A stretch of 39,014 bases of DNA from a virus (taxonomy: Duplodnaviria > Heunggongvirae > Uroviricota > Caudoviricetes), in the IMG/VR virus record IMGVR_UViG_2671180460_000015; one strand, given 5' to 3'. Positions 123-39,014 of this stretch are shown piece after piece. Below the pieces are notes generated by a model. The model saw only the letters and a list, made by a program, of their open reading frames with translations, did not search any database and had not been told where the DNA came from. How positions within the stretch are numbered: position 1 is the first letter of the stretch; each line of letters opens with the position of its first letter. The translations under genes and the position numbers were made by a program.

Positions 123-701
123 AACTTCTGGTATTACAGGCCACTCAATATCAGGTGCAGTTGATGTATCAACACGGTTCAGCAACACCCGATACTTCTT
201 CCAGGCTTCCAGCAACGAGTTTTCTTCCTCCGTTGCGATCTCCAGATCTACAGCATCCTGAAGTGGCGCAATATGCTCACTGGCTACCTGCATCAGGCTG
301 TTTTTTGTTTCTTCCGCCTCCCGGATCCGGAACAGTTTTTCTGCTTCTGCATCTTTCACCCAGGCTGTGCCGTTCCACTTCTGAAACTCCCCTTCCGGCG
401 ATAACCAGGTAACATTTTCCGGTAACGGACCGAGTTCAGAAATAAATAACGCGTCCTCTGACGCTACGTCATAAACCGTTTTACCCCGATGATCTTCAAC
501 GAGATGCCACGATGCCTCATCACTGTTGAAAACAGCCACGAAGCCTGCCGGAATATCTGGCGGTGCAATATCGGTACTGTTTGCTGGCAGACCTGTATGA
601 GGCGGAATATATGCATCACCTTCACCAATAAATTCATTAGTTCCGGCCAGCAGATTATAAATTTTTATGGTCCGTGGTTGTTCACTCATTCTGAATGCCA
701 T
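120..701 (-). CDS. tfa: tail fiber assembly protein Tfa
   Basis: 193-aa ORF; translation [24 protein letters not shown]... is near-identical to lambda Tfa as I recall it. Confidence 0.95.
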
Positions 702-26521: not shown

Positions 26522-27604
26522 ATGAAAAAATTAACAGTGGCAATTTCTGCTGTAGCTGCATCAGTACTGATGGCGATGTCTGCTCAGGCAGCTGAAATTT
26601 ATAATAAAGACAGTAACAAGCTGGATCTATATGGGAAAGTTAATGCCAAGCACTACTTCTCCTCTAATGATGCAGATGATGGTGATACTACTTATGCCCG
26701 TCTTGGCTTCAAAGGTGAAACCCAAATCAACGATCAACTGACTGGTTTCGGTCAGTGGGAATATGAATTCAAAGGCAACCGCGCTGAATCTCAAGGCTCC
26801 TCCAAAGACAAAACCCGTCTTGCATTTGCAGGCCTGAAATTCGGGGACTACGGCTCAATCGATTACGGCCGTAACTACGGTGTAGCATACGACATCGGTG
26901 CGTGGACTGACGTTCTGCCAGAATTCGGTGGCGATACCTGGACCCAAACAGATGTGTTCATGACTGGTCGCACCACTGGTGTTGCAACTTATCGTAACAA
27001 CGACTTCTTTGGTCTGGTTGATGGTCTGAACTTTGCTGCTCAGTATCAGGGTAAAAATGACCGCACTGACGTAACTGAAGCTAATGGTGATGGTTTCGGT
27101 TTCTCCACTACTTATGAGTATGAAGGATTCGGTGTAGGTGCAACCTATGCTAAATCTGACCGCACTAATAATCAGGTTATCTACGGTAACAACAGCCTGA
27201 ATGCATCTGGTCAAAATGCTGAAGTATGGGCAGCTGGTCTGAAATATGATGCGAACAACATCTATCTGGCTACCACCTATTCTGAAACCCAGAACATGAC
27301 TGTTTTTGGTAATAACCATATTGCCAACAAAGCACAAAACTTCGAAGTAGTTGCACAATATCAGTTCGACTTCGGTCTGCGTCCGTCCGTTGCTTACCTG
27401 CAATCTAAAGGAAAAGACTTGGGTGCGTGGGGTGATCAGGACCTGGTTGAATATATTGATGTAGGTGCAACCTATTACTTCAACAAAAATATGTCCACTT
27501 TTGTTGATTACAAAATCAACCTGATTGATAAGAGCGATTTCACGAAAGCATCTGGCGTTGCTACCGATGATATCGTTGCTGTAGGTATGGTTTACCAGTT
27601 CTAA
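26522..27604 (+). CDS. nmpC: outer-membrane general porin, OmpC/OmpF/NmpC (Lc) family, prophage-encoded
   Basis: 360 aa with signal peptide [30 protein letters not shown]... and C-terminal ...VGMVYQF; same position and opposite-strand orientation as DLP12 nmpC between Q and S. Confidence 0.9.
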
Positions 27605-31039: not shown

Positions 31040-32566
31040 TCAAAAATAAACCTCACCATCAACCATATATTTGAGAGTACTTATCGCCTGCTGGGCGGAT
31101 ATTGTTTTCATTAAAGGATAGTGTTTAAAAACAATGCCATTCATAAAATAGATATCACAGGTTTTATTATCTGTATTGATTATGATTTTTTCGAATGTTT
31201 TATAGGCAAGTGTACGACATAGCTCTCGCCCATTTTTACTGGTTAAGTCAATAGCATGAAAATCACCAAGTGAACTCACCGCTTTACTCTTCAAAGTTTT
31301 TAATGATACAGAAGCCCTTCGTAATTCCTTATCTAATACTCTGATTTTTTCTGCTATAGCGGTAACTTCAGGCGCAACAGATAATGCAGCAATTAAATTA
31401 TTAATTTTCATCTGGAGCTCAATAATTTTCAACTCTAAAGTTTCATTAGCATCTTTCTTGTTTTCAACTGGTTGGATTTTACTACAATTAAAAAGCAACT
31501 CATTAATGATATTATAATCAACCAAATCTCTCTTTATTGATGGCCTGTCACATCGATGCAGTCTTCTCATCGGACAAACATAATAGCCATGCAAACTTCC
31601 AGATACCGCATGAACAATCATGGTATTACCACAAGCCTCGCACTTCATAACTGTTCGAAGTAGATTTATCAACATAGGATTTTTGCTACTATTGCTAATA
31701 CCAAAAGGTGCCAACCGAATTTCCTGCACAGCGTAAAACAAATCATCTGATATGACTCTGGGATAATAGCCAGCGATTTCACTTATTCCTTTACCTCTTG
31801 CACGATATGAAGGTACGCATATACCTATCAGAGCTTTATTCGCTAATAATTTTTCAATTACAGAAGGTCCCCATGCACTTTCTTTTCCTGAGAAATTCTT
31901 TACAGCATGATCATTTAAATACTTGGCTATTGCATTCAATGAGCGCCTTTCCATCCTGAGTTTAAAAATTAGCTCAATAGTTTTCACCCTGTCGGGGTCT
32001 GGAACAAAAGCCGTTCTTTTGTCATCCAATGAGAGCCATCTCGGACAAGACGCCGTCATAATCGTGCCTGACTCCAGTGCATCCTGCCGTTTTTTCTTCC
32101 ATGATAATTTAACCCGACTTGACTTTATCTCGCTTTCTTCATTTGCCCTTTGTGCTATAAGTATGGCTTTTATTAATGAATATGGCTCATTCAATGAGTC
32201 AATATTATAGACTGTATTATCGCAAAGAGTTATAACATCAATACCGTGATTCAAAATCAATTTCAGACGCTCAATCGCTTCACCGACTTTTTCTCTTGAA
32301 AGTCTGTCCAGACTTTCAACTAACAATGTAGTCCCTGGCAATATATAACCATGTTCTATAGCATCTAAAAATTCCGAAAAAGCTCCTGATTGTGCATGCT
32401 TTCCATTGAATGCGCTTAACCCCAAATCTTCATACGTTACGGTATCAAGGTAATAATCACTATTTACCTTTAGCCATTCAGTAATAAGCCTTCTCTGGCG
32501 GTTTAATGAATCACCAGACATCTGACCTGGTGATGAAAATCGCATATATGCTATGGCTTTTTTCAT
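31040..32566 (-). CDS. ybcK: large serine recombinase (resolvase/invertase-type N-terminal catalytic domain), YbcK-like
   Basis: 508 aa; N-terminus MKKAIAYMRFSSPGQMSGDSLNRQRRL... has the serine-recombinase catalytic motif (YxRxS...R); same length and context (next to emrE) as DLP12 ybcK. Confidence 0.85.
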   Translation of the reverse strand: MKKAIAYMRFSSPGQMSGDSLNRQRRLITEWLKVNSDYYLDTVTYEDLGLSAFNGKHAQSGAFSEFLDAIEHGYILPGTTLLVESLDRLSREKVGEAIERLKLILNHGIDVITLCDNTVYNIDSLNEPYSLIKAILIAQRANEESEIKSSRVKLSWKKKRQDALESGTIMTASCPRWLSLDDKRTAFVPDPDRVKTIELIFKLRMERRSLNAIAKYLNDHAVKNFSGKESAWGPSVIEKLLANKALIGICVPSYRARGKGISEIAGYYPRVISDDLFYAVQEIRLAPFGISNSSKNPMLINLLRTVMKCEACGNTMIVHAVSGSLHGYYVCPMRRLHRCDRPSIKRDLVDYNIINELLFNCSKIQPVENKKDANETLELKIIELQMKINNLIAALSVAPEVTAIAEKIRVLDKELRRASVSLKTLKSKAVSSLGDFHAIDLTSKNGRELCRTLAYKTFEKIIINTDNKTCDIYFMNGIVFKHYPLMKTISAQQAISTLKYMVDGEVYF

Positions 32567-35234: not shown

Positions 35235-35780
35235 TCATATTGCCCCCAGCATGGTGGTGACCATCGCCATCAATGGACCAGCCAGATCCGGGTCCACACG
35301 AAACATCGACACAATGCCTTCACTCATCTCCTTCAGTTTCTGGTGGCGTGGCGCGTTGAGAATGACAGCCTGTTTTGCTTCACTGAGTTCCTTTTCCATT
35401 TCAGCCAGCCGAGCCATGAAGCTATCCTGCTCAACCAGGTGGCCGCGATAGTCCAGCGGTAGTACCGCCAGAATTGCCGGGGTCAGTTCACGCACGTTAT
35501 TTCGGTATTTTTCAGAATCGAATTTGTTATCGAGGAAGCGGAACAGCTTCTGGCGTGCACGGCTGACATCATCAGGGAAATCGATGGTGCCGCCGCCCTG
35601 CTCCCGATACTCATTCACAATGAGTGCGGCAACAACATCCTGATTATCTGCAGCCGACCAGGCGCGGACGGCATCACGGATTTTTTCGTGGCCTGGAGCT
35701 TGTTTTGTTTGAGAACGATTTATCACCGCAGTCGGGCTAAATCCGCTAGTCTGTTGGTATGTAAGTGGTTGCATAGTCAT
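35235..35780 (-). CDS. early regulatory protein at the cII position (possibly a YdaT-like CII analog)
   Basis: 181-aa ORF between cro-like and O on the pR-transcribed strand; does not resemble lambda CII (97 aa). Family assignment is inference from position and vague recall. Confidence 0.6.
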   Translation of the reverse strand: MTMQPLTYQQTSGFSPTAVINRSQTKQAPGHEKIRDAVRAWSAADNQDVVAALIVNEYREQGGGTIDFPDDVSRARQKLFRFLDNKFDSEKYRNNVRELTPAILAVLPLDYRGHLVEQDSFMARLAEMEKELSEAKQAVILNAPRHQKLKEMSEGIVSMFRVDPDLAGPLMAMVTTMLGAI

Positions 35781-35804
35781 TGCCTTATCAGTTAACGCCG
35801 CAGA

Positions 35805-36032
35805 TTAGGCGGCAGAATTACTCGCGTTAAACAATGGTGCGAGGTCGGGACGAATATCTGCTGGTTTAATCTTTCCACCAGTGGCTGAGACAATTTTCAT
35901 TACATAGCGGGCATCAATTCCGCCACCGTGTAGCCAACGCCAAACAGTGGGCTGGGCTACACCGCATAGATCTGCCAGTCGTTTTTGACTACCTGTAATA
36001 CTGATTGCGAGTTGAATGGTTTGATTTGTCAT
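35805..36032 (-). CDS. cro: Cro-like HTH repressor (Cro/YdaS type)
   Basis: 75 aa; helix-turn-helix QKRLADLCGVAQPTVWRW; divergent from cI across an operator region. Confidence 0.8.
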   Translation of the reverse strand: MTNQTIQLAISITGSQKRLADLCGVAQPTVWRWLHGGGIDARYVMKIVSATGGKIKPADIRPDLAPLFNASNSAA

Positions 36033-36142
36033 TATTAATTCCTATTGGTATTACAATGAATAAATAATAGCAATACGTATTAATCATAACAATAGCAAAA
36101 CGTGTTTTGACCATCAATACGCAAGCGTATAAATTAAAACTT
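36033..36142. promoter_or_regulatory. OR region with divergent pR and pRM candidates and AATAGCAA operator motifs
   Basis: Minus-strand pR candidate: -35 TTGTTA (36092-36087), 17-bp spacer, -10 TATTAT (36069-36064). Plus-strand pRM candidate: TTGACC (36107-36112) and TATAAA (36128-36133), placing the start at or near the cI ATG (leaderless, as in lambda). Operator motifs at 36066-36075 and 36091-36100. Confidence 0.6.
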
Positions 36143-36835
36143 ATGAAAAAAGAAACTCTTGCTGATCGCTTAAACCTAGCGATGGAACAATCTGGAATGT
36201 CTCAAGGCGCTCTTGCAAAGGCGTCTGGCGTAGCTCAACCCACAATCTGGAGACTGACAAGCGGCAACGCGCGCGGCTCAACAAAAATTGTTGAAATAGC
36301 TAATGCATTGGGTGTTCGAACAGAGTGGCTCTCATCAGGCATAGGCCCGATGAGAAATGACGGTCAACAATTAGGGAAGCCTACTGCCAACCATCCCAAA
36401 TACTTCAAGATTGACGTTCTTGATATAGAAGTGAGTGCCGGGCCGGGAGTCATCAACCGTGAGTTTGTAGAAGTTCTACGCTCGGTTGAGTACTCGTTTG
36501 ACGATGCTCGTCACATGTTCGATGGTAGGAAGGCAGAAAATATCCGCATCATTAACGTACGCGGTGACAGCATGTCAGGAACGATTGAACCTGGTGATCT
36601 TCTATTCGTTGATATCACGGTTAAATCTTTCGACGGTGATGGTATCTATGCGTTTCTGTACGACGACACAGCCCATGTAAAGCGCCTGCAAATGATGAAG
36701 GATAAGCTGCTGGTTATCTCTGATAACAAAAGCTACTCACCGTGGGACCCGATCGAGAAAGATGAGATGAACCGGGTATTTATCTTCGGGAAAGTTATTG
36801 GGAGCATGCCGCAGACGTATAGGAAGCATGGATAG
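36143..36835 (+). CDS. cI: CI-like prophage repressor (N-terminal HTH plus C-terminal LexA/S24 self-cleavage domain)
   Basis: MKKETLADRLNLAMEQSGMSQGALAKASGVAQPTIWRL... HTH; C-terminal region with GDSMSGTI (S24 peptidase Ser motif) and the catalytic Lys region. The ORF-track TTG start at 36107 is probably spurious. Confidence 0.9.
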   Translation: MKKETLADRLNLAMEQSGMSQGALAKASGVAQPTIWRLTSGNARGSTKIVEIANALGVRTEWLSSGIGPMRNDGQQLGKPTANHPKYFKIDVLDIEVSAGPGVINREFVEVLRSVEYSFDDARHMFDGRKAENIRIINVRGDSMSGTIEPGDLLFVDITVKSFDGDGIYAFLYDDTAHVKRLQMMKDKLLVISDNKSYSPWDPIEKDEMNRVFIFGKVIGSMPQTYRKHG

Positions 36836-36915
36836 TACCAATTAAAAATTATCAACCGGGCATTGTGCTCATTCAGTAAAACAACTTAATTATTCATTTT
36901 AGAATGGAGAACTTA

Positions 36916-37977
36916 ATGGATACTTTAAAATATGAGAAATTCTCTGATTTTGATCACAATGACCCATTTTTTGACTCTTTAAAAAAAGATTATAAAGAGT
37001 TTCCTCTTTGGTTAGAAAAAAAAGCCAGAGAAGGAGAATCAGCTTATGTGCTCTATGATGACAAGCATAAAATCGAAGGTTTTATGTATCTAAAAGAAAA
37101 TGATGATGCAAATGACATTAATCCAGCGCTCCCACCAGGACGTCATCTAAAGATAGGAACATTCAAATTTGAATCTAAAGGCACCCTTCGCGGACAACGA
37201 TTTCTAAAAAAAGCGTTTGACCATGCATTTTCATCAAAATCTGATGATATTTATGTTACTGTTTTCGACAAACACGTCCATCTAATAAAACTTTTCCAAA
37301 CGTACGGATTTTACATTCATGGTGAAAAAGAAACACATAACGGGAAAGAGTTTGTATATGCGAGGTCTTTGCATGAGCCTTATGGTGATATTTTATTAGA
37401 TTACCCTCGAATAATGACATCAAGGGCCAACAAATATTTACTGGCGATTTATCCCGAATATCACACTAGACTATTCCCTGATTCAAAACTTGTAAATGAA
37501 TCACCAGATATTGTCAAAGATATATCCCATGCTAACAGCATTCATAAAATTTACATATGTGGAATGCGTTCTGTGATGGGAATGAAAAGAGGAGATATCA
37601 TTGTCATCTATAGAACCGGAGACAAAAAAGGGCCAGCTCGCTATCGTTCTGTAGCCAGTACATTATGTGTAGTTGAGAGCGTAAAAAATATTTCTGAATT
37701 TTTAAGCGAAGATAGTTTTGTAGACTATTGTATTCGTTTTAGCGTATTTTCTGAAGATGAACTCAGAAAAATCTATAAAGAACGTCGATACCCTTTCATT
37801 ATAAGATTCACATACAATCTGTCTTTGCCAAAGAGACCCAATCGTGCTATTTTAATAGATCATGTGGGGCTAAATGGTTCGCGTGCATTCCGATGGAGTC
37901 ACTTTAAACTCACAAATGAGCAGTTCTTAAAGATCATCGAGTTAGGCAAGATAAATGAAAGTTTTATTATCCATTAA
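36916..37977 (+). CDS. hypothetical 353-aa protein, first gene of the immunity-region accessory operon (rexA position)
   Basis: ORF 36904-37977; GGAG at 36906-36909 sits 6 nt before the second ATG (36916). Strongly AT-rich. No lambda homolog recognised; tentative GNAT-like N-terminal half and PUA-like C-terminal half from motif inspection only. Confidence 0.75.
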   Translation: MDTLKYEKFSDFDHNDPFFDSLKKDYKEFPLWLEKKAREGESAYVLYDDKHKIEGFMYLKENDDANDINPALPPGRHLKIGTFKFESKGTLRGQRFLKKAFDHAFSSKSDDIYVTVFDKHVHLIKLFQTYGFYIHGEKETHNGKEFVYARSLHEPYGDILLDYPRIMTSRANKYLLAIYPEYHTRLFPDSKLVNESPDIVKDISHANSIHKIYICGMRSVMGMKRGDIIVIYRTGDKKGPARYRSVASTLCVVESVKNISEFLSEDSFVDYCIRFSVFSEDELRKIYKERRYPFIIRFTYNLSLPKRPNRAILIDHVGLNGSRAFRWSHFKLTNEQFLKIIELGKINESFIIH

Positions 37978-38332
37978 GCCTGAGTTTGCAGAAAAAATAT
38001 TGAACGGAACAAAGCGGTTCGAGTTTCGTAAAGGTATATTCAAAAATCCGCAAATTAGCACCGTTGTTATTTATGCCACGATGCCATTAGGTAAAGTTGT
38101 TGGTCAATTCCGTATTGAATCAATACTAAGTGACGAACCGGAATCTCTTTGGAAAAAGACGGAAAAACACGCAGGTATTTCTAAGCAATTTTATGACTCA
38201 TATTATTCAGGTAGAGAAAAGGCCTACGCAATAAAAATTGGTGAAGTGGAAAGATATAAAGAACCAATTCCTATCTCTGCTCTAGGTAGTAATATTAAGC
38301 CACCACAATCATATCTTTACCTACCTGCGTAA
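37955..38332 (+). CDS. ASCH/PUA-like domain protein (125 aa), second gene of the immunity-region accessory operon (rexB position)
   Basis: MKVLLSIKPEFAEKILNGTKRFEFRKG... carries the ASCH G-x-K-x-x-E-x-R signature; start overlaps the upstream gene by 23 nt; AT-rich. Confidence 0.75.
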   Translation: MKVLLSIKPEFAEKILNGTKRFEFRKGIFKNPQISTVVIYATMPLGKVVGQFRIESILSDEPESLWKKTEKHAGISKQFYDSYYSGREKAYAIKIGEVERYKEPIPISALGSNIKPPQSYLYLPA

Positions 38333-38336
38333 GAAT

Positions 38337-38363
38337 CCCGGCCACCGTGCCGGGTTTTCTTTT
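38337..38363 (+). terminator. rho-independent terminator ending the cI-distal accessory operon
   Basis: CCCGGC-caccgt-GCCGGG hairpin followed by TTTTCTTTT, 5 nt after the stop codon. Confidence 0.7.
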
Positions 38364-38444: not shown

Positions 38445-38535
38445 ATTCTTTTTGCTATCAAACAGTTAATATCAAAACACATTAATCAATAGCAATAAGT
38501 ATTGATACAGCCAATAGCAATAGCTATTATCACCA
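38445..38535 (+). promoter_or_regulatory. OL/pL region: near-consensus sigma-70 promoter with AATAGCAA operator motifs
   Basis: -35 TTGATA (38502-38507), 17-bp spacer, -10 TATTAT (38525-38530) on the + strand. Operator motif aatagcaata at 38488-38497 and 38513-38522, and inverted (tttgctatc) at 38451-38460. Confidence 0.6.
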
Positions 38536-38603
38536 TGTCGCAACAACACAACGATACGGCAATCACCTGATTCACCGTTGCGATGACCGCTTAGATCCGC
38601 AGC

Positions 38604-39014
38604 TTGAATTTCAGCAGGCTCCGGGGAGTGCGAGGGGTGAAGCGGACGCGTGAACGTCGGTGTGACCAGCTGAAATCAACTCAACACTTCATACCTCAGT
38701 CGCTTCAACGAGGCGGCTTAGTTATGACAACCGGCGGCCATCCACCGCCTGAATACGCGCAGAAGTCTCTATATGTTCAGCAGCCCAGCTTACGGGCAGG
38801 AGTTTTTATGGTTCATCAACATTACGGAACGCAGACCGTTAATCGAGGTGCGGTCATGCCAGGAATGCTGGTCAAACACAAAGATGGTACCTGGACTGCA
38901 TCAGCTAATTTACGCGGACGGCTTTATCTGCATCGCGGCATCGAGCGCACTTATACCCGTGATTTGCTCGTGGAAGTTTTTCTCGACGGACGCGGTAACG
39001 GCCTGAATCACTAA
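38604..39014 (+). CDS. hypothetical early protein at the N position (first gene downstream of the candidate pL); start uncertain
   Basis: Open frame from a TTG at 38604; alternative starts are a GTG at 38634 and the ATG at 38722. An Arg-rich stretch KRTRERR near the N-terminus loosely resembles the lambda N arginine-rich motif, but the rest is unlike N. Confidence 0.4.
   Translation: MNFSRLRGVRGVKRTRERRCDQLKSTQHFIPQSLQRGGLVMTTGGHPPPEYAQKSLYVQQPSLRAGVFMVHQHYGTQTVNRGAVMPGMLVKHKDGTWTASANLRGRLYLHRGIERTYTRDLLVEVFLDGRGNGLNH

Follow-up and report, generated by a model that had tools for sequence, protein, structure and literature searches.

Between the stop codon of a cI-type repressor gene and an intrinsic terminator, the DNA analysed here (a 39,014-nt stretch of Caudoviricetes origin, hereafter the window) carries two open reading frames on the cI strand, gene A (353 aa) and gene B (125 aa), which overlap by 23 nt as the first-pass annotation had described (Table 1). 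Base composition marks the cassette as foreign, its GC content being 0.349 versus 0.519 in the rest of the window and 0.472 in cI, in line with the AT-rich, acquired cassette proposed earlier. Neither frame is a chance opening, since the probability of 353 codons without a stop is about 1e-12 at the cassette's own base composition and both A and B have thousands of homologues. A start of A at 36904, yielding 357 aa, was dropped in favour of 36916 because homologues of A are 350-357 aa long, PGAP gives 353 aa in E. coli genomes and a GGAG lies 6 nt upstream of the latter codon.

Table 1. Features of the immunity region and of its cargo module (positions in the window)
Feature	Position	Strand	Evidence or remark
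OR operator region (context), between cro-like (YdaS-type) gene and cI	36061..36114	.	repeat comparison
cI-type repressor (context), 230 aa by PGAP homologues	36143..36835	+	Pfam HTH_3 and Peptidase_S24
Swappable cargo module (leader, A and B)	36837..38335	+	homology breakpoints, GC 0.349
Leader, 79 nt, with Shine-Dalgarno GGAG 36906-36909	36837..36915	+	sequence; terminator scan
Gene A, 353 aa, predicted GNAT-EVE type (PDC-M11A)	36916..37977	+	PADLOC, phrog, GevT identity, AF2
Predicted GNAT acetyltransferase domain of A, about aa 1-152	36916..37371	+	
Predicted PUA-like (EVE/ASCH-type) C-terminal domain of A, about aa 173-353	37432..37974	+	without the ASCH catalytic octapeptide
A/B overlap, 23 nt	37955..37977	+	ATG of B formed by conserved Asn/Asp-Glu codons of A
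Gene B, 125 aa, canonical ASCH (PDC-M11B; region labelled GevA)	37955..38332	+	Pfam, PADLOC, PDB
ASCH octapeptide of B, G18-x-K20-x-x-E23-x-R25	38006..38029	+	K/E/R in 77/77 and G in 75/77 partners
Last 76 nt of B, retained in the deletion scar	38257..38332	+	scar comparison
Intrinsic terminator of the immunity transcript	38337..38363	+	6-bp all-G:C stem 38337-38354, T-run to 38363
OL operator repeats (context), with pL-like promoter 38502-38530 (+)	38467..38536	.	repeats and promoter scan

The slot between cI and the immunity terminator

The repressor frame is open from a TTG at 36107; the start at 36143 was transferred from PGAP calls of homologues, and the TAG stop codon occupies 36833-36835. 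Operator-like repeats are common to OR and OL: the 54 nt of OR match 38483-38536 at 72% identity, and copies of a 22-nt unit lie at 36065, 38467 and 38487. The OL operators and the pL-like promoter lie beyond the terminator, where they had been predicted. No Rfam family was found near pL. The sole gathering-level Rfam match in the window is IS009 at 160-358.

Cargo is exchanged precisely within the interval from the cI stop (36835) to the terminator stem (38337): homology to phages that share this cI and differ in cargo breaks off at 36834-36836 and picks up again at 38336-38337. The terminator is common to phages with other cargo and belongs to the phage backbone; the earlier description of a two-gene unit ending in a terminator was right about the existence of the latter and wrong in counting it as part of the cassette. 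HipA-like/DUF3037 (PDC-M66) and MqsA-like modules occupy the same slot in sister phages, which answers the earlier question whether it is a variable hotspot. The cI-terminator slot is a true cargo hotspot, syntenic with lambda rexAB, and its exact boundaries, from cI stop codon to terminator stem, make it a clean place to study lysogen-expressed cargo swaps in lambdoid phages.

Lambda carries rexAB in this slot, on the cI transcript, and a lambda lysogen thereby excludes other phages. The rexA-rexB position attributed to the pair stands: both genes run in the direction of cI, and a scan predicted no terminator in the cI-A interval. The pair has in common with RexA-RexB its position, its two genes and an expected expression on the cI transcript up to the immunity terminator, but no kinship of sequence or fold: RexB is a membrane protein, which neither A nor B resembles, and no Rex-related match was found in PADLOC, Pfam, PHROGs or NCBIfam. 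A promoter scan returned 8 sites versus 8.2 expected by chance, so that an internal promoter for B cannot be claimed.

Domain composition of A and B

Protein A is matched by PADLOC model PDLC04419 (E 2e-133, aa 6-356 of 357) and by phrog_6345 (E 1e-186), and has no Pfam match of its own. The GNAT-like N-terminal and PUA-like C-terminal halves first proposed by eye were both borne out by structural comparison of its AF2 model (pLDDT 88). The GNAT structures closest to A are N-alpha-acetyltransferases; acetylation of the amine of an aminoacyl-tRNA by A would be compatible with these neighbours, which do not prove it. The putative acetyl-CoA loop reads G-T-L-R-G-Q-R and differs from the canonical R-x-x-G-x-G/A; this deviation and the missing Pfam match both weigh against the acetylating toxin favoured below.

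The C-terminal domain of A finds its best structural match in ZmASCH, an ASCH and not an EVE protein, and is not detected by the Pfam EVE model. It has a ZmASCH-like fold and a V-I-Y-x-T strand motif in common with B. When the full-length profiles of A and B were compared, no more than 29 columns aligned (probability 20%), so the ASCH homology of this domain rests on structure, not sequence. None of the A relatives (0/34) has the ASCH octapeptide, and they vary at the site of the catalytic Lys (K in 21, I in 12, R in 1), which makes a non-catalytic reader the best interpretation of the domain. As modelled, A joins a GNAT acetyltransferase fold to a PUA-like reader of nucleic acids in which the ASCH catalytic motif is gone. 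An R-x5-H motif (RAFRWSH) singled out in the first-pass annotation was discarded, as it is conserved in 6/34 relatives at each end, with gaps in 24/34 between. Some relatives of A bear fusions, namely a TIR domain, a PIN-like extension (weak match) or an ASCH domain; the ASCH-fused relatives still keep a separate B gene.

The ASCH signature noticed in B was substantiated by the Pfam ASCH model (PF04266; E 2.5e-8, 35 bits versus a gathering cut-off of 21.2). B also matches PADLOC PDLC04425 (E 7e-52, aa 1-123), phrog_3136 (E 1e-57) and, in the PDB, ZmASCH 5GUS/5GUQ (E 1e-15). The octapeptide, in the form G-x-K-x-x-[E/T/S]-x-R, is present in all 28 of 28 B relatives, and B keeps Y40, K47 and S119, which correspond to Tyr47, Lys53 and Ser128 of ZmASCH. 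Judged from its sequence, B is a small ASCH protein in which the predicted catalytic Lys/Glu dyad and the RNA-cleft residues are intact. A B-type domain is elsewhere fused to ribosomal protein L22 (NF008917), and in other lineages B-type ASCH proteins have unrelated upstream partners.

ZmASCH (ZMO0922; PDB 5GUQ/5GUS/5Y6B) is the closest solved relative of B, with the octapeptide and the three residues above in common, and matches PDC-M11B with an E of 3e-29. It was first described as a weak ribonuclease, cutting ssRNA only. According to a recent preprint (10.64898/2026.02.27.708502), all 19 of 19 ASCH proteins assayed, ZmASCH included, strip ac4C from E. coli tRNA in vitro, the Lys and Glu being essential as the catalytic dyad of this removal; ac4C was not lowered in vivo by ZmASCH, and some ASCH proteins bind ssDNA or dsDNA. 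A check for an A-type partner of ZmASCH in Zymomonas was negative: the 375-aa protein encoded upstream is unrelated to A (hhalign probability about 0) and has no PADLOC or Pfam match. This neighbour places ZmASCH outside GNAT-EVE systems and, together with the weak RNase activity and the lack of an ac4C drop in vivo, means that ZmASCH biochemistry transfers to B only at the subfamily level.

A known family, its pairing and its distribution

The novelty that the first-pass annotation implied for the pair does not hold. By sequence comparison the module is a copy of the GNAT-EVE + ASCH family, for which the accessible literature offers no mechanism; the family is already known, as attested by PADLOC, by a GenBank label and by an operon predicted to be a toxin-antitoxin system in 2013 and 2020 (PMC7641849). 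PADLOC, which the earlier note had proposed to run, matched both proteins end to end with their best models, those of PDC-M11, a class of defence candidates, and gave no match other than PDC-M11. Our literature search for PDC-M11 found no functional publication, its one trace being a brief mention in a survey of strains. In Escherichia phage PhiR47_2 (PV340567.1), a coding region labelled GevT toxin encodes a protein 100% identical to A and is followed by one labelled GevA antitoxin; the locus as a whole shows 97% DNA identity and occupies the same slot after cI. GevT and GevA are unreferenced annotation labels in this record. Literature searches for GevT, GevA and GevAT found no paper mentioning GevT or GevA. 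Their probable source is the study of Brenes and Laub (2025, Cell Host Microbe 33:1004).

Bell, Wolf and Koonin (2020, PMC7641849) predicted (PIN)-GNAT-EVE + ASCH (+AAA_17) operons to be toxin-antitoxin systems and noted GNAT-EVE + ASCH operons in prophages of beta- and gamma-proteobacteria. As cited there, Iyer et al. (2013, NAR 41:7635) gave an earlier description of the family and proposed a DNA base as target. Our module and its relatives agree with the operons of Bell et al. in gene order (GNAT with a C-terminal PUA-superfamily domain, then a stand-alone ASCH gene), in their variants (PIN-like N-terminus, AAA_17 third gene) and in their gamma-proteobacterial prophage habitat; three of these traits, a PIN-like extension (as a weak match), AAA_17 genes nearby and an ASCH partner that is always present, were recovered independently here. 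As a difference, the C-terminal domain of A is missed by Pfam EVE and has an ASCH protein as its nearest solved structure. Our additions to Bell et al. are the exact slot from cI to terminator, an overlap of 23 nt that is universal, relatives fused to TIR, the deletion scar, and an ASCH octapeptide that A has lost and B has kept.

Pairing was surveyed at 80 loci from many phyla. B lies beside A in 80/80, directly downstream on the same strand in 77 and convergent nearby in 3, and the A-B pair is obligatory. Of the 77 same-strand pairs, 72 share an overlap of exactly 23 nt and the remaining 5 have one of 29 nt; SopEPhi, Lj965 and P7.1 show the 23-nt form as well. Such constancy across phyla agrees with the translational coupling of a functional pair suggested earlier, and the overlap is evidently a conserved coupling device.

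The module is common in E. coli, where it sits in the classic rexAB position: it was found in about 5% of complete genomes, O157:H7 and ST131 strains included. A further 14% or so, about 750 genomes, carry a deletion scar from which both genes were removed together and in which the first 44 nt of the leader (36837-36880) are retained along with the end of B, the missing span being 36881-38256. The nearest neighbours at the 80 loci include integrases, ThsA/SIR2, GajB, R-M systems, SoFic, RmrT and other PDC candidates, and the P2-like SopEPhi has the module between its gene A and portal Q, beside a PRTase + DprA-like pair. The abortive infection or exclusion acting on RNA or tRNA that was first proposed is plausible. 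An unlikely alternative would have it serve the phage, either in counter-defence or anti-restriction or as a prophage-stabilising addiction module without exclusion. It has been suggested that prophage GNAT-EVE proteins might shield phages from host restriction (PMC7641849), and toxin-antitoxin modules can be mere stabilisers; the pair is found on 34 plasmids, besides temperate phages, across many phyla. However, placement on the cI transcript speaks for expression in the lysogen and not in early infection, lambda has rexAB in this slot where sister phages have other toxin-antitoxin or defence candidates, and the clean loss of the cassette from about 750 genomes implies that any addiction is weak at best.

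Naturally disrupted copies bear on the roles of the partners. Among 30 sampled E. coli rows, A was disrupted by IS1 or a frameshift, with B intact, in 2 genomes and both were broken in 1 (n=3 disrupted copies, among which sequencing errors are possible); none had B broken and A intact. Of the two partners, A seems to be the one that can be lost. The opposite assignment, with B an ssRNA ribonuclease effector and A a sensor or regulator restraining or activating it, for example by acetylating B or its substrate, would account for the degradation of ssRNA by ZmASCH in vitro through residues conserved in B, and for the unrelated upstream partners of B-type proteins elsewhere, as expected of a portable effector. 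We regard it as highly improbable: the ribonuclease of ZmASCH was described as weak, natural variants break A and leave B intact, the depositors of PV340567.1 label A the toxin, and the effector-like TIR and PIN-like domains are appended to A, not to B.

Candidate modes of action

From the GenBank labels and the disrupted E. coli copies, we infer candidate roles for A as the toxic and B as the neutralising partner. The PDC-M11/GevTA cargo probably, though with appreciable doubt, comprises an RNA- or tRNA-acetylating toxin and its antidote, a balance that infection upsets so that the phage is excluded. In lysogens the pair would share a transcript with cI, and its two proteins would be made at a constant ratio. 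The reader domain of A, the harmful partner, would direct the GNAT active site onto a nucleic acid, tRNA or some other RNA being the likeliest, and A would N-acetylate its target (cytidine N4 or an aminoacyl amine) and block translation. B, as antidote, may hydrolyse the amide, occupy the same RNA site or A itself, or do both. Infection by another phage would disturb the balance, the lysogen would stop translating and the incoming phage would be excluded by abortive infection.

The toxins of TacAT, AtaRT, ItaRT and KacAT are GNAT enzymes that acetylate aminoacyl-tRNA; they are single-domain proteins of about 160-175 aa, encoded after a ribbon-helix-helix antitoxin gene and neutralised by binding. 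A GNAT as toxic enzyme and translation as probable target are likewise proposed for A. Unlike them, A has two domains including a reader, its gene comes first and its partner is an ASCH protein, and TacT/AtaT-type toxins are absent from its top structural neighbours.

How B would act is the point on which readings diverge. One of them follows type II logic: B would neutralise A by protein binding only and reverse nothing enzymatically, either mimicking the PUA-like domain of A or capping the GNAT site, its catalytic residues being maintained for that interaction or for some other function. A complex assembled during translation would suit the strict 23-nt coupling, and the fold and strand motif common to B and the C-terminal domain of A, the ASCH domains fused to the A core and the alpha-proteobacterial HTH-ASCH fusions, which resemble autoregulating antitoxins (PMC7641849), point the same way. 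Yet the invariance of the octapeptide and RNA cleft of B across phyla exceeds what a binding interface usually needs, and a separate B gene is kept even where an ASCH domain is fused to A, so that binding as the whole explanation appears doubtful.

The toxin-antidote reading that we favour could take a more specific form, which we put forward tentatively, as a possibility short of an even chance: A, steered by its catalytically dead PUA-like reader, would be a writer that adds an N-acetyl group to RNA (for instance ac4C at non-native positions, or aminoacyl-tRNA) and B a dedicated ASCH amidohydrolase that removes it continuously until infection tips the balance and translation is shut down. 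DarT-DarG, in which the toxin ADP-ribosylates DNA and a macrodomain antitoxin removes the mark, offers an analogy only, that of a covalent mark and its enzymatic removal; the chemistry is another one and there is no homology. The dead ASCH-like reader in A versus the live ASCH in B, taken with the 2026 report of ac4C erasers, makes this a specific and cheaply checkable hypothesis. If true, the pair would be the first acetylation-based toxin-antitoxin or defence system with an enzymatic antidote and would provide the first physiological role of the bacterial ZmASCH-type 'ac4C erasers'.

The target may also be considered to be DNA, the reader of A recognising a modified or unmodified base of phage DNA that the GNAT domain would acetylate, with the ASCH protein reading or removing the mark. 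EVE-type domains often read modified DNA bases, ASCH-HsdS and ASCH-HTH fusions exist in some lineages and PIN-GNAT-EVE proteins occur with type I R-M systems (PMC7641849), to which the DNA binding of some ASCH proteins may be added (preprint 10.64898/2026.02.27.708502). The same preprint, however, measured ASCH activities on ac4C in tRNA or nucleosides, and ZmASCH cleaves ssRNA only. With the B-type domain on ribosomal protein L22 (NF008917) and the PIN-like extension pointing to RNA, and with N-alpha-acetyltransferases as the closest GNAT neighbours of A, a DNA target seems improbable.

The cassette and its slot in the immunity region

The first-pass annotation had proposed two overlapping ORFs, A and B, downstream of the cI repressor gene, and both were recovered on the + strand with identical limits and an overlap of 23 nt. 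Given the cassette's own base composition, a 353-codon frame would stay open by chance with a probability of about 1e-12. For A, we prefer ATG 36916 over the start at 36904 since GGAG lies 6 nt upstream of it, homologues are 350-357 aa long and PGAP calls a 353-aa protein in E. coli. The G+C content of the cassette is 34.9%, versus 51.9% for the remaining window and 47.2% for cI.

The upstream neighbour of A encodes a cI-type repressor (Pfam HTH_3 and Peptidase_S24); beyond the divergent promoter region come a cro-like gene of the YdaS type and a gene of the YdaT type (Pfam). Proteins of these two types are named 'toxins' in Pfam and annotated as Cro and cII in phage records. The terminator scan predicted no terminator between cI and A. 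Operator-like repeats are common to the cro/cI intergenic region and to the region of the pL-like promoter. Between this promoter and the kil-like gene (38531-38807), no ORF for an N-like antiterminator was annotated and no Rfam family matched.

The boundaries were compared with those of phages that share the cI allele, or have a related one, and carry different cargo. The alignment of PhiR5_1, PhiR70_1 and Perceval with the window ends at 36834-36836 and is regained at 38336-38337; consequently, the exchangeable module is made up of gene A, gene B and the 79-nt leader in front of them. The terminator, previously counted as part of the cassette, sits in the common backbone, where sister-phage homology has already resumed. 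The slot of the sister phages holds either a HipA-like kinase with DUF3037 (PADLOC candidate PDC-M66A/B), a three-gene set with an MqsA-like antitoxin, or a 340-aa protein with a membrane protein. In lambda, rexA-rexB occupy the same position. The suggestion that this slot is a variable hotspot is borne out by the differing cargo of the surveyed sister phages, and the cargo that it collects is toxin-antitoxin-like and would be expressed by the lysogen.

Coordinates of features in the window and in compared loci
Feature	Sequence	Coordinates	Strand	Basis or remark
IS009 small RNA family	window	160-358	-	Rfam, 228 bits
Gram-negative porin, full-length	window	26522-27604	+	Porin_1, E 3e-153
Large serine recombinase, 508 aa	window	31040-32566	-	Resolvase, Recombinase, Zn_ribbon_recom
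YdaS-type (75 aa) and YdaT-type (181 aa) proteins	window	35235-36032	-	cro and cII positions
Operator-like repeats, cro/cI intergenic	window	36061-36114
cI stop codon, TAG	window	36833-36835	+	sequence
Exchangeable module	window	36837-38335		alignment breaks
ORF A	window	36904/36916-37977	+	ORF call
ORF B	window	37955-38332	+	ORF call
Terminator, 6-bp all-G:C stem and T-run	window	38337-38363		predicted
Operator-like repeats, pL region	window	38467-38536
pL-like promoter	window	38502-38530		promoter scan; within pL-region repeats
kil-like gene	window	38808 to window end		transferred from PGAP calls
AAA_17/AAA_18 P-loop gene	L019	1720-2232		directly 3' of B
AAA_17/AAA_18 P-loop gene	L028	7431-7946		directly 3' of B
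AAA_17/AAA_18 P-loop gene	L066	7431-7970		directly 3' of B
ZmASCH (ZMO0922) locus	Zymomonas mobilis, L092	2825-4447
A-B locus	SopEPhi, L097	3444-6733
A-B locus	Lj965, L095	2807-4902
Distant A relative	psiM100, AF301375.1 / NC_002628.3	8698-9534
Second A-B allele	E. coli, NZ_OX460315.1	around 3069115-3070402

Family membership, pairing and genomic context

A and B match PADLOC candidate PDC-M11 from end to end. A protein identical to A is named 'GevT toxin', with a 'GevA antitoxin' as its partner, in Escherichia phage PhiR47_2 (GenBank PV340567.1); the phage panel originates from Brenes and Laub 2025. 'Gev' evidently stands for GNAT-EVE. Operons of the '(PIN)-GNAT-EVE' type are predicted toxin-antitoxin systems, almost always with an ASCH protein and often with an AAA_17 ATPase, and their PIN-less forms are common in beta- and gammaproteobacterial prophages (Bell, Wolf and Koonin 2020, PMC7641849). 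The same authors name Iyer et al. 2013 as having described such systems before them, and report that no component had been characterised as of 2020 (PMC7641849). Our literature search found no open paper mentioning GevT or GevA. The window cassette is a member of this already described and already named candidate family; its predicted role is known as well.

A scan for A relatives in one genome per species yielded 215 loci, the best 80 of which were analysed (45-74% identity; Proteobacteria, Bacteroidota, Firmicutes, Acidobacteria, Verrucomicrobia and Campylobacterota). All 80 contain a B homologue, lying directly downstream on the same strand in 77. Counting the A stop codon, the overlap is exactly 23 nt in 72 of these 77 loci and 29 nt in five, and 23 nt recurs in Salmonella phage SopEPhi, Lactobacillus prophage Lj965 and Lacticaseibacillus phage P7.1. 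The ATG of B is formed from conserved Asn/Asp-Glu codons of A. In these gene arrangements the pair is obligatory and its coupling tight. About nine of the 80 loci (L019, L028, L066 and others) have a small AAA_17/AAA_18 P-loop gene directly after B, a facultative third member of the module that is absent from the window.

Two further loci show that B-type ASCH proteins have several different partners. Crystallised ZmASCH matches the PDC-M11B profiles and lies downstream of a 375-aa protein unrelated to A, with no Pfam or PADLOC match. In Neorhizobium (L094), a B-type ASCH gene overlaps that of a 721-aa GNAT-containing protein, and the pair adjoins a Type ISP restriction gene, a reverse transcriptase and an integrase. 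A distant A relative (27% identity over 79% of length) lies inside 'inserted fragment IFa' of the archaeal virus Methanothermobacter phage psiM100.

The 150 genes closest to the pair at the 80 loci include integrases, resolvases, cI-like repressors and holins, together with established or candidate defence genes (ThsA/SIR2, GajB, type I and III R-M, SoFic, RmrT, mad2 and several PDC candidates). This neighbourhood points to defence. Relatives of A were also found on 34 plasmids. In P2-like SopEPhi, the pair is located in the interval from replication gene A to portal gene Q; a phosphoribosyltransferase (PRTase) and a DprA/SLOG-like protein follow it and resemble a further defence-type pair at this hotspot. 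In P2, tin and old occupy this region. The Lj965 pair comes immediately after a cluster of four tRNA genes of the phage (Ser, Glu, Tyr, Phe), which may be coincidence or may reflect tRNA as the system's currency.

Within E. coli, the cassette is present at 99% identity or more in 275 of 5,426 complete genomes, always on the chromosome; the cI gene preceding it represents at least two alleles. Three of 30 sampled E. coli rows hold damaged copies (L089 in NZ_AP022351.1, L090 and L091), the damage being IS1 (IS1X4) in A with B intact, a frameshift in A with B intact, or a frameshifted A with a truncated B; none of the 30 combines an intact A with a broken B. B-derived sequence occurs in 1,058 E. 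coli genomes, about 750 of which keep only the last 76 nt of B. In the two scar prophages examined (L098 and L099), the cI stop and leader 36837-36880 (44 nt) are joined to 38257-38332 and the terminator, with about 90-92% identity to the cassette. This scar results from one deletion of about 1.38 kb, in which the whole of A was lost along with three-quarters of B, and about 750 of the 5,426 complete genomes have a lambdoid prophage with only the scar in its cI-pL slot. Damage pattern and joint deletion are both compatible with a toxic A to which B is the antidote, in a small sample with possible sequencing errors. A second, divergent A-B allele (about 65-68% DNA identity) was found at another chromosomal site in 35 complete E. 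coli genomes.

Domains and a putative writer-eraser mechanism

The domain calls initially made by eye proved good, and the ASCH assignment of B was confirmed by a match above the Pfam cut-off. B also matches the solved Zymomonas protein ZmASCH (E 1e-15). Its octapeptide G18-x-K20-x-x-E23-x-R25 is found in 28 of 28 aligned relatives, with K/E/R kept in all 77 B partner genes of other genomes. Y40, K47 and S119 are equivalent to ZmASCH Tyr47, Lys53 and Ser128, which are required for nucleic-acid binding and cleavage. NCBIfam NF008917 ('L22/unknown domain fusion protein'; E 3e-15 against B) joins a B-type ASCH domain to ribosomal protein L22, which hints at a link with the ribosome.

A (353 aa) has no Pfam match, and its AlphaFold2 model with 34 homologues is confident (pLDDT 88, pTM 0.85). 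None of 34 relatives has the ASCH octapeptide in the C-terminal domain, and the alignment column of the catalytic Lys holds K in 21, I in 12 and R in one. This domain carries the invariant motifs S-[HY]-x-N-S-I-[HR]-K-[IV]-Y and D-x-x-x-x-Y-R-[TM], and we read it as a putative non-catalytic reader. The R-x5-H motif noted earlier in A falls in an indel-rich, unconserved region. Longer A relatives have extra N-terminal domains: TIR in P0243 (L088), a weak PIN-like match in P0300 and P0311, and an additional canonical ASCH in P0322 (L087), P0335 and P0343; P0311 bears a further ASCH at its C-terminus. A separate B gene is retained beside both extended-A variants examined.

Other GNAT toxins acetylate the aminoacyl amine. 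Nineteen ASCH proteins, including ZmASCH, strip the tRNA of E. coli of N4-acetylcytidine (ac4C) in vitro, an activity for which Lys and Glu of the octapeptide are indispensable (preprint 10.64898/2026.02.27.708502). Such activity, together with an acetyltransferase that bears a dead ASCH-like reader and has a live ASCH partner, suggests a writer-eraser toxin-antitoxin as the simplest model. A would acetylate RNA, most likely tRNA, at cytidine N4 or the aminoacyl amine, and B would hydrolyse the amide or shield the site. The lysogen would be protected by transcription of the pair together with cI and by its coupled translation, until a superinfecting phage disturbs the balance and translation stops.

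The acetyl-CoA loop of A, however, departs from the canonical form, and a DNA rather than RNA target, as considered by Iyer et al. (via PMC7641849), is possible. ZmASCH did not lower ac4C in vivo (preprint 10.64898/2026.02.27.708502) and, unlike B, has a partner foreign to the A family, which tempers transfer of its mechanism. B may possibly be a purely binding antitoxin, although its octapeptide is invariant. It may also be the effector, ZmASCH having first been reported as a weak ssRNA nuclease, although the damaged copies fit the reverse roles. The pair may, alternatively, serve the phage. The writer-eraser model gives a sharp, testable mechanistic hypothesis for a widespread family at a classic locus.

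Other features of the window

The porin gene, a typical lambdoid moron, runs in the opposite direction to the late genes around it. The serine recombinase gene lies between the replication and late-regulation regions, and IS009 is the only gathering-level RNA family match in the window (Rfam).
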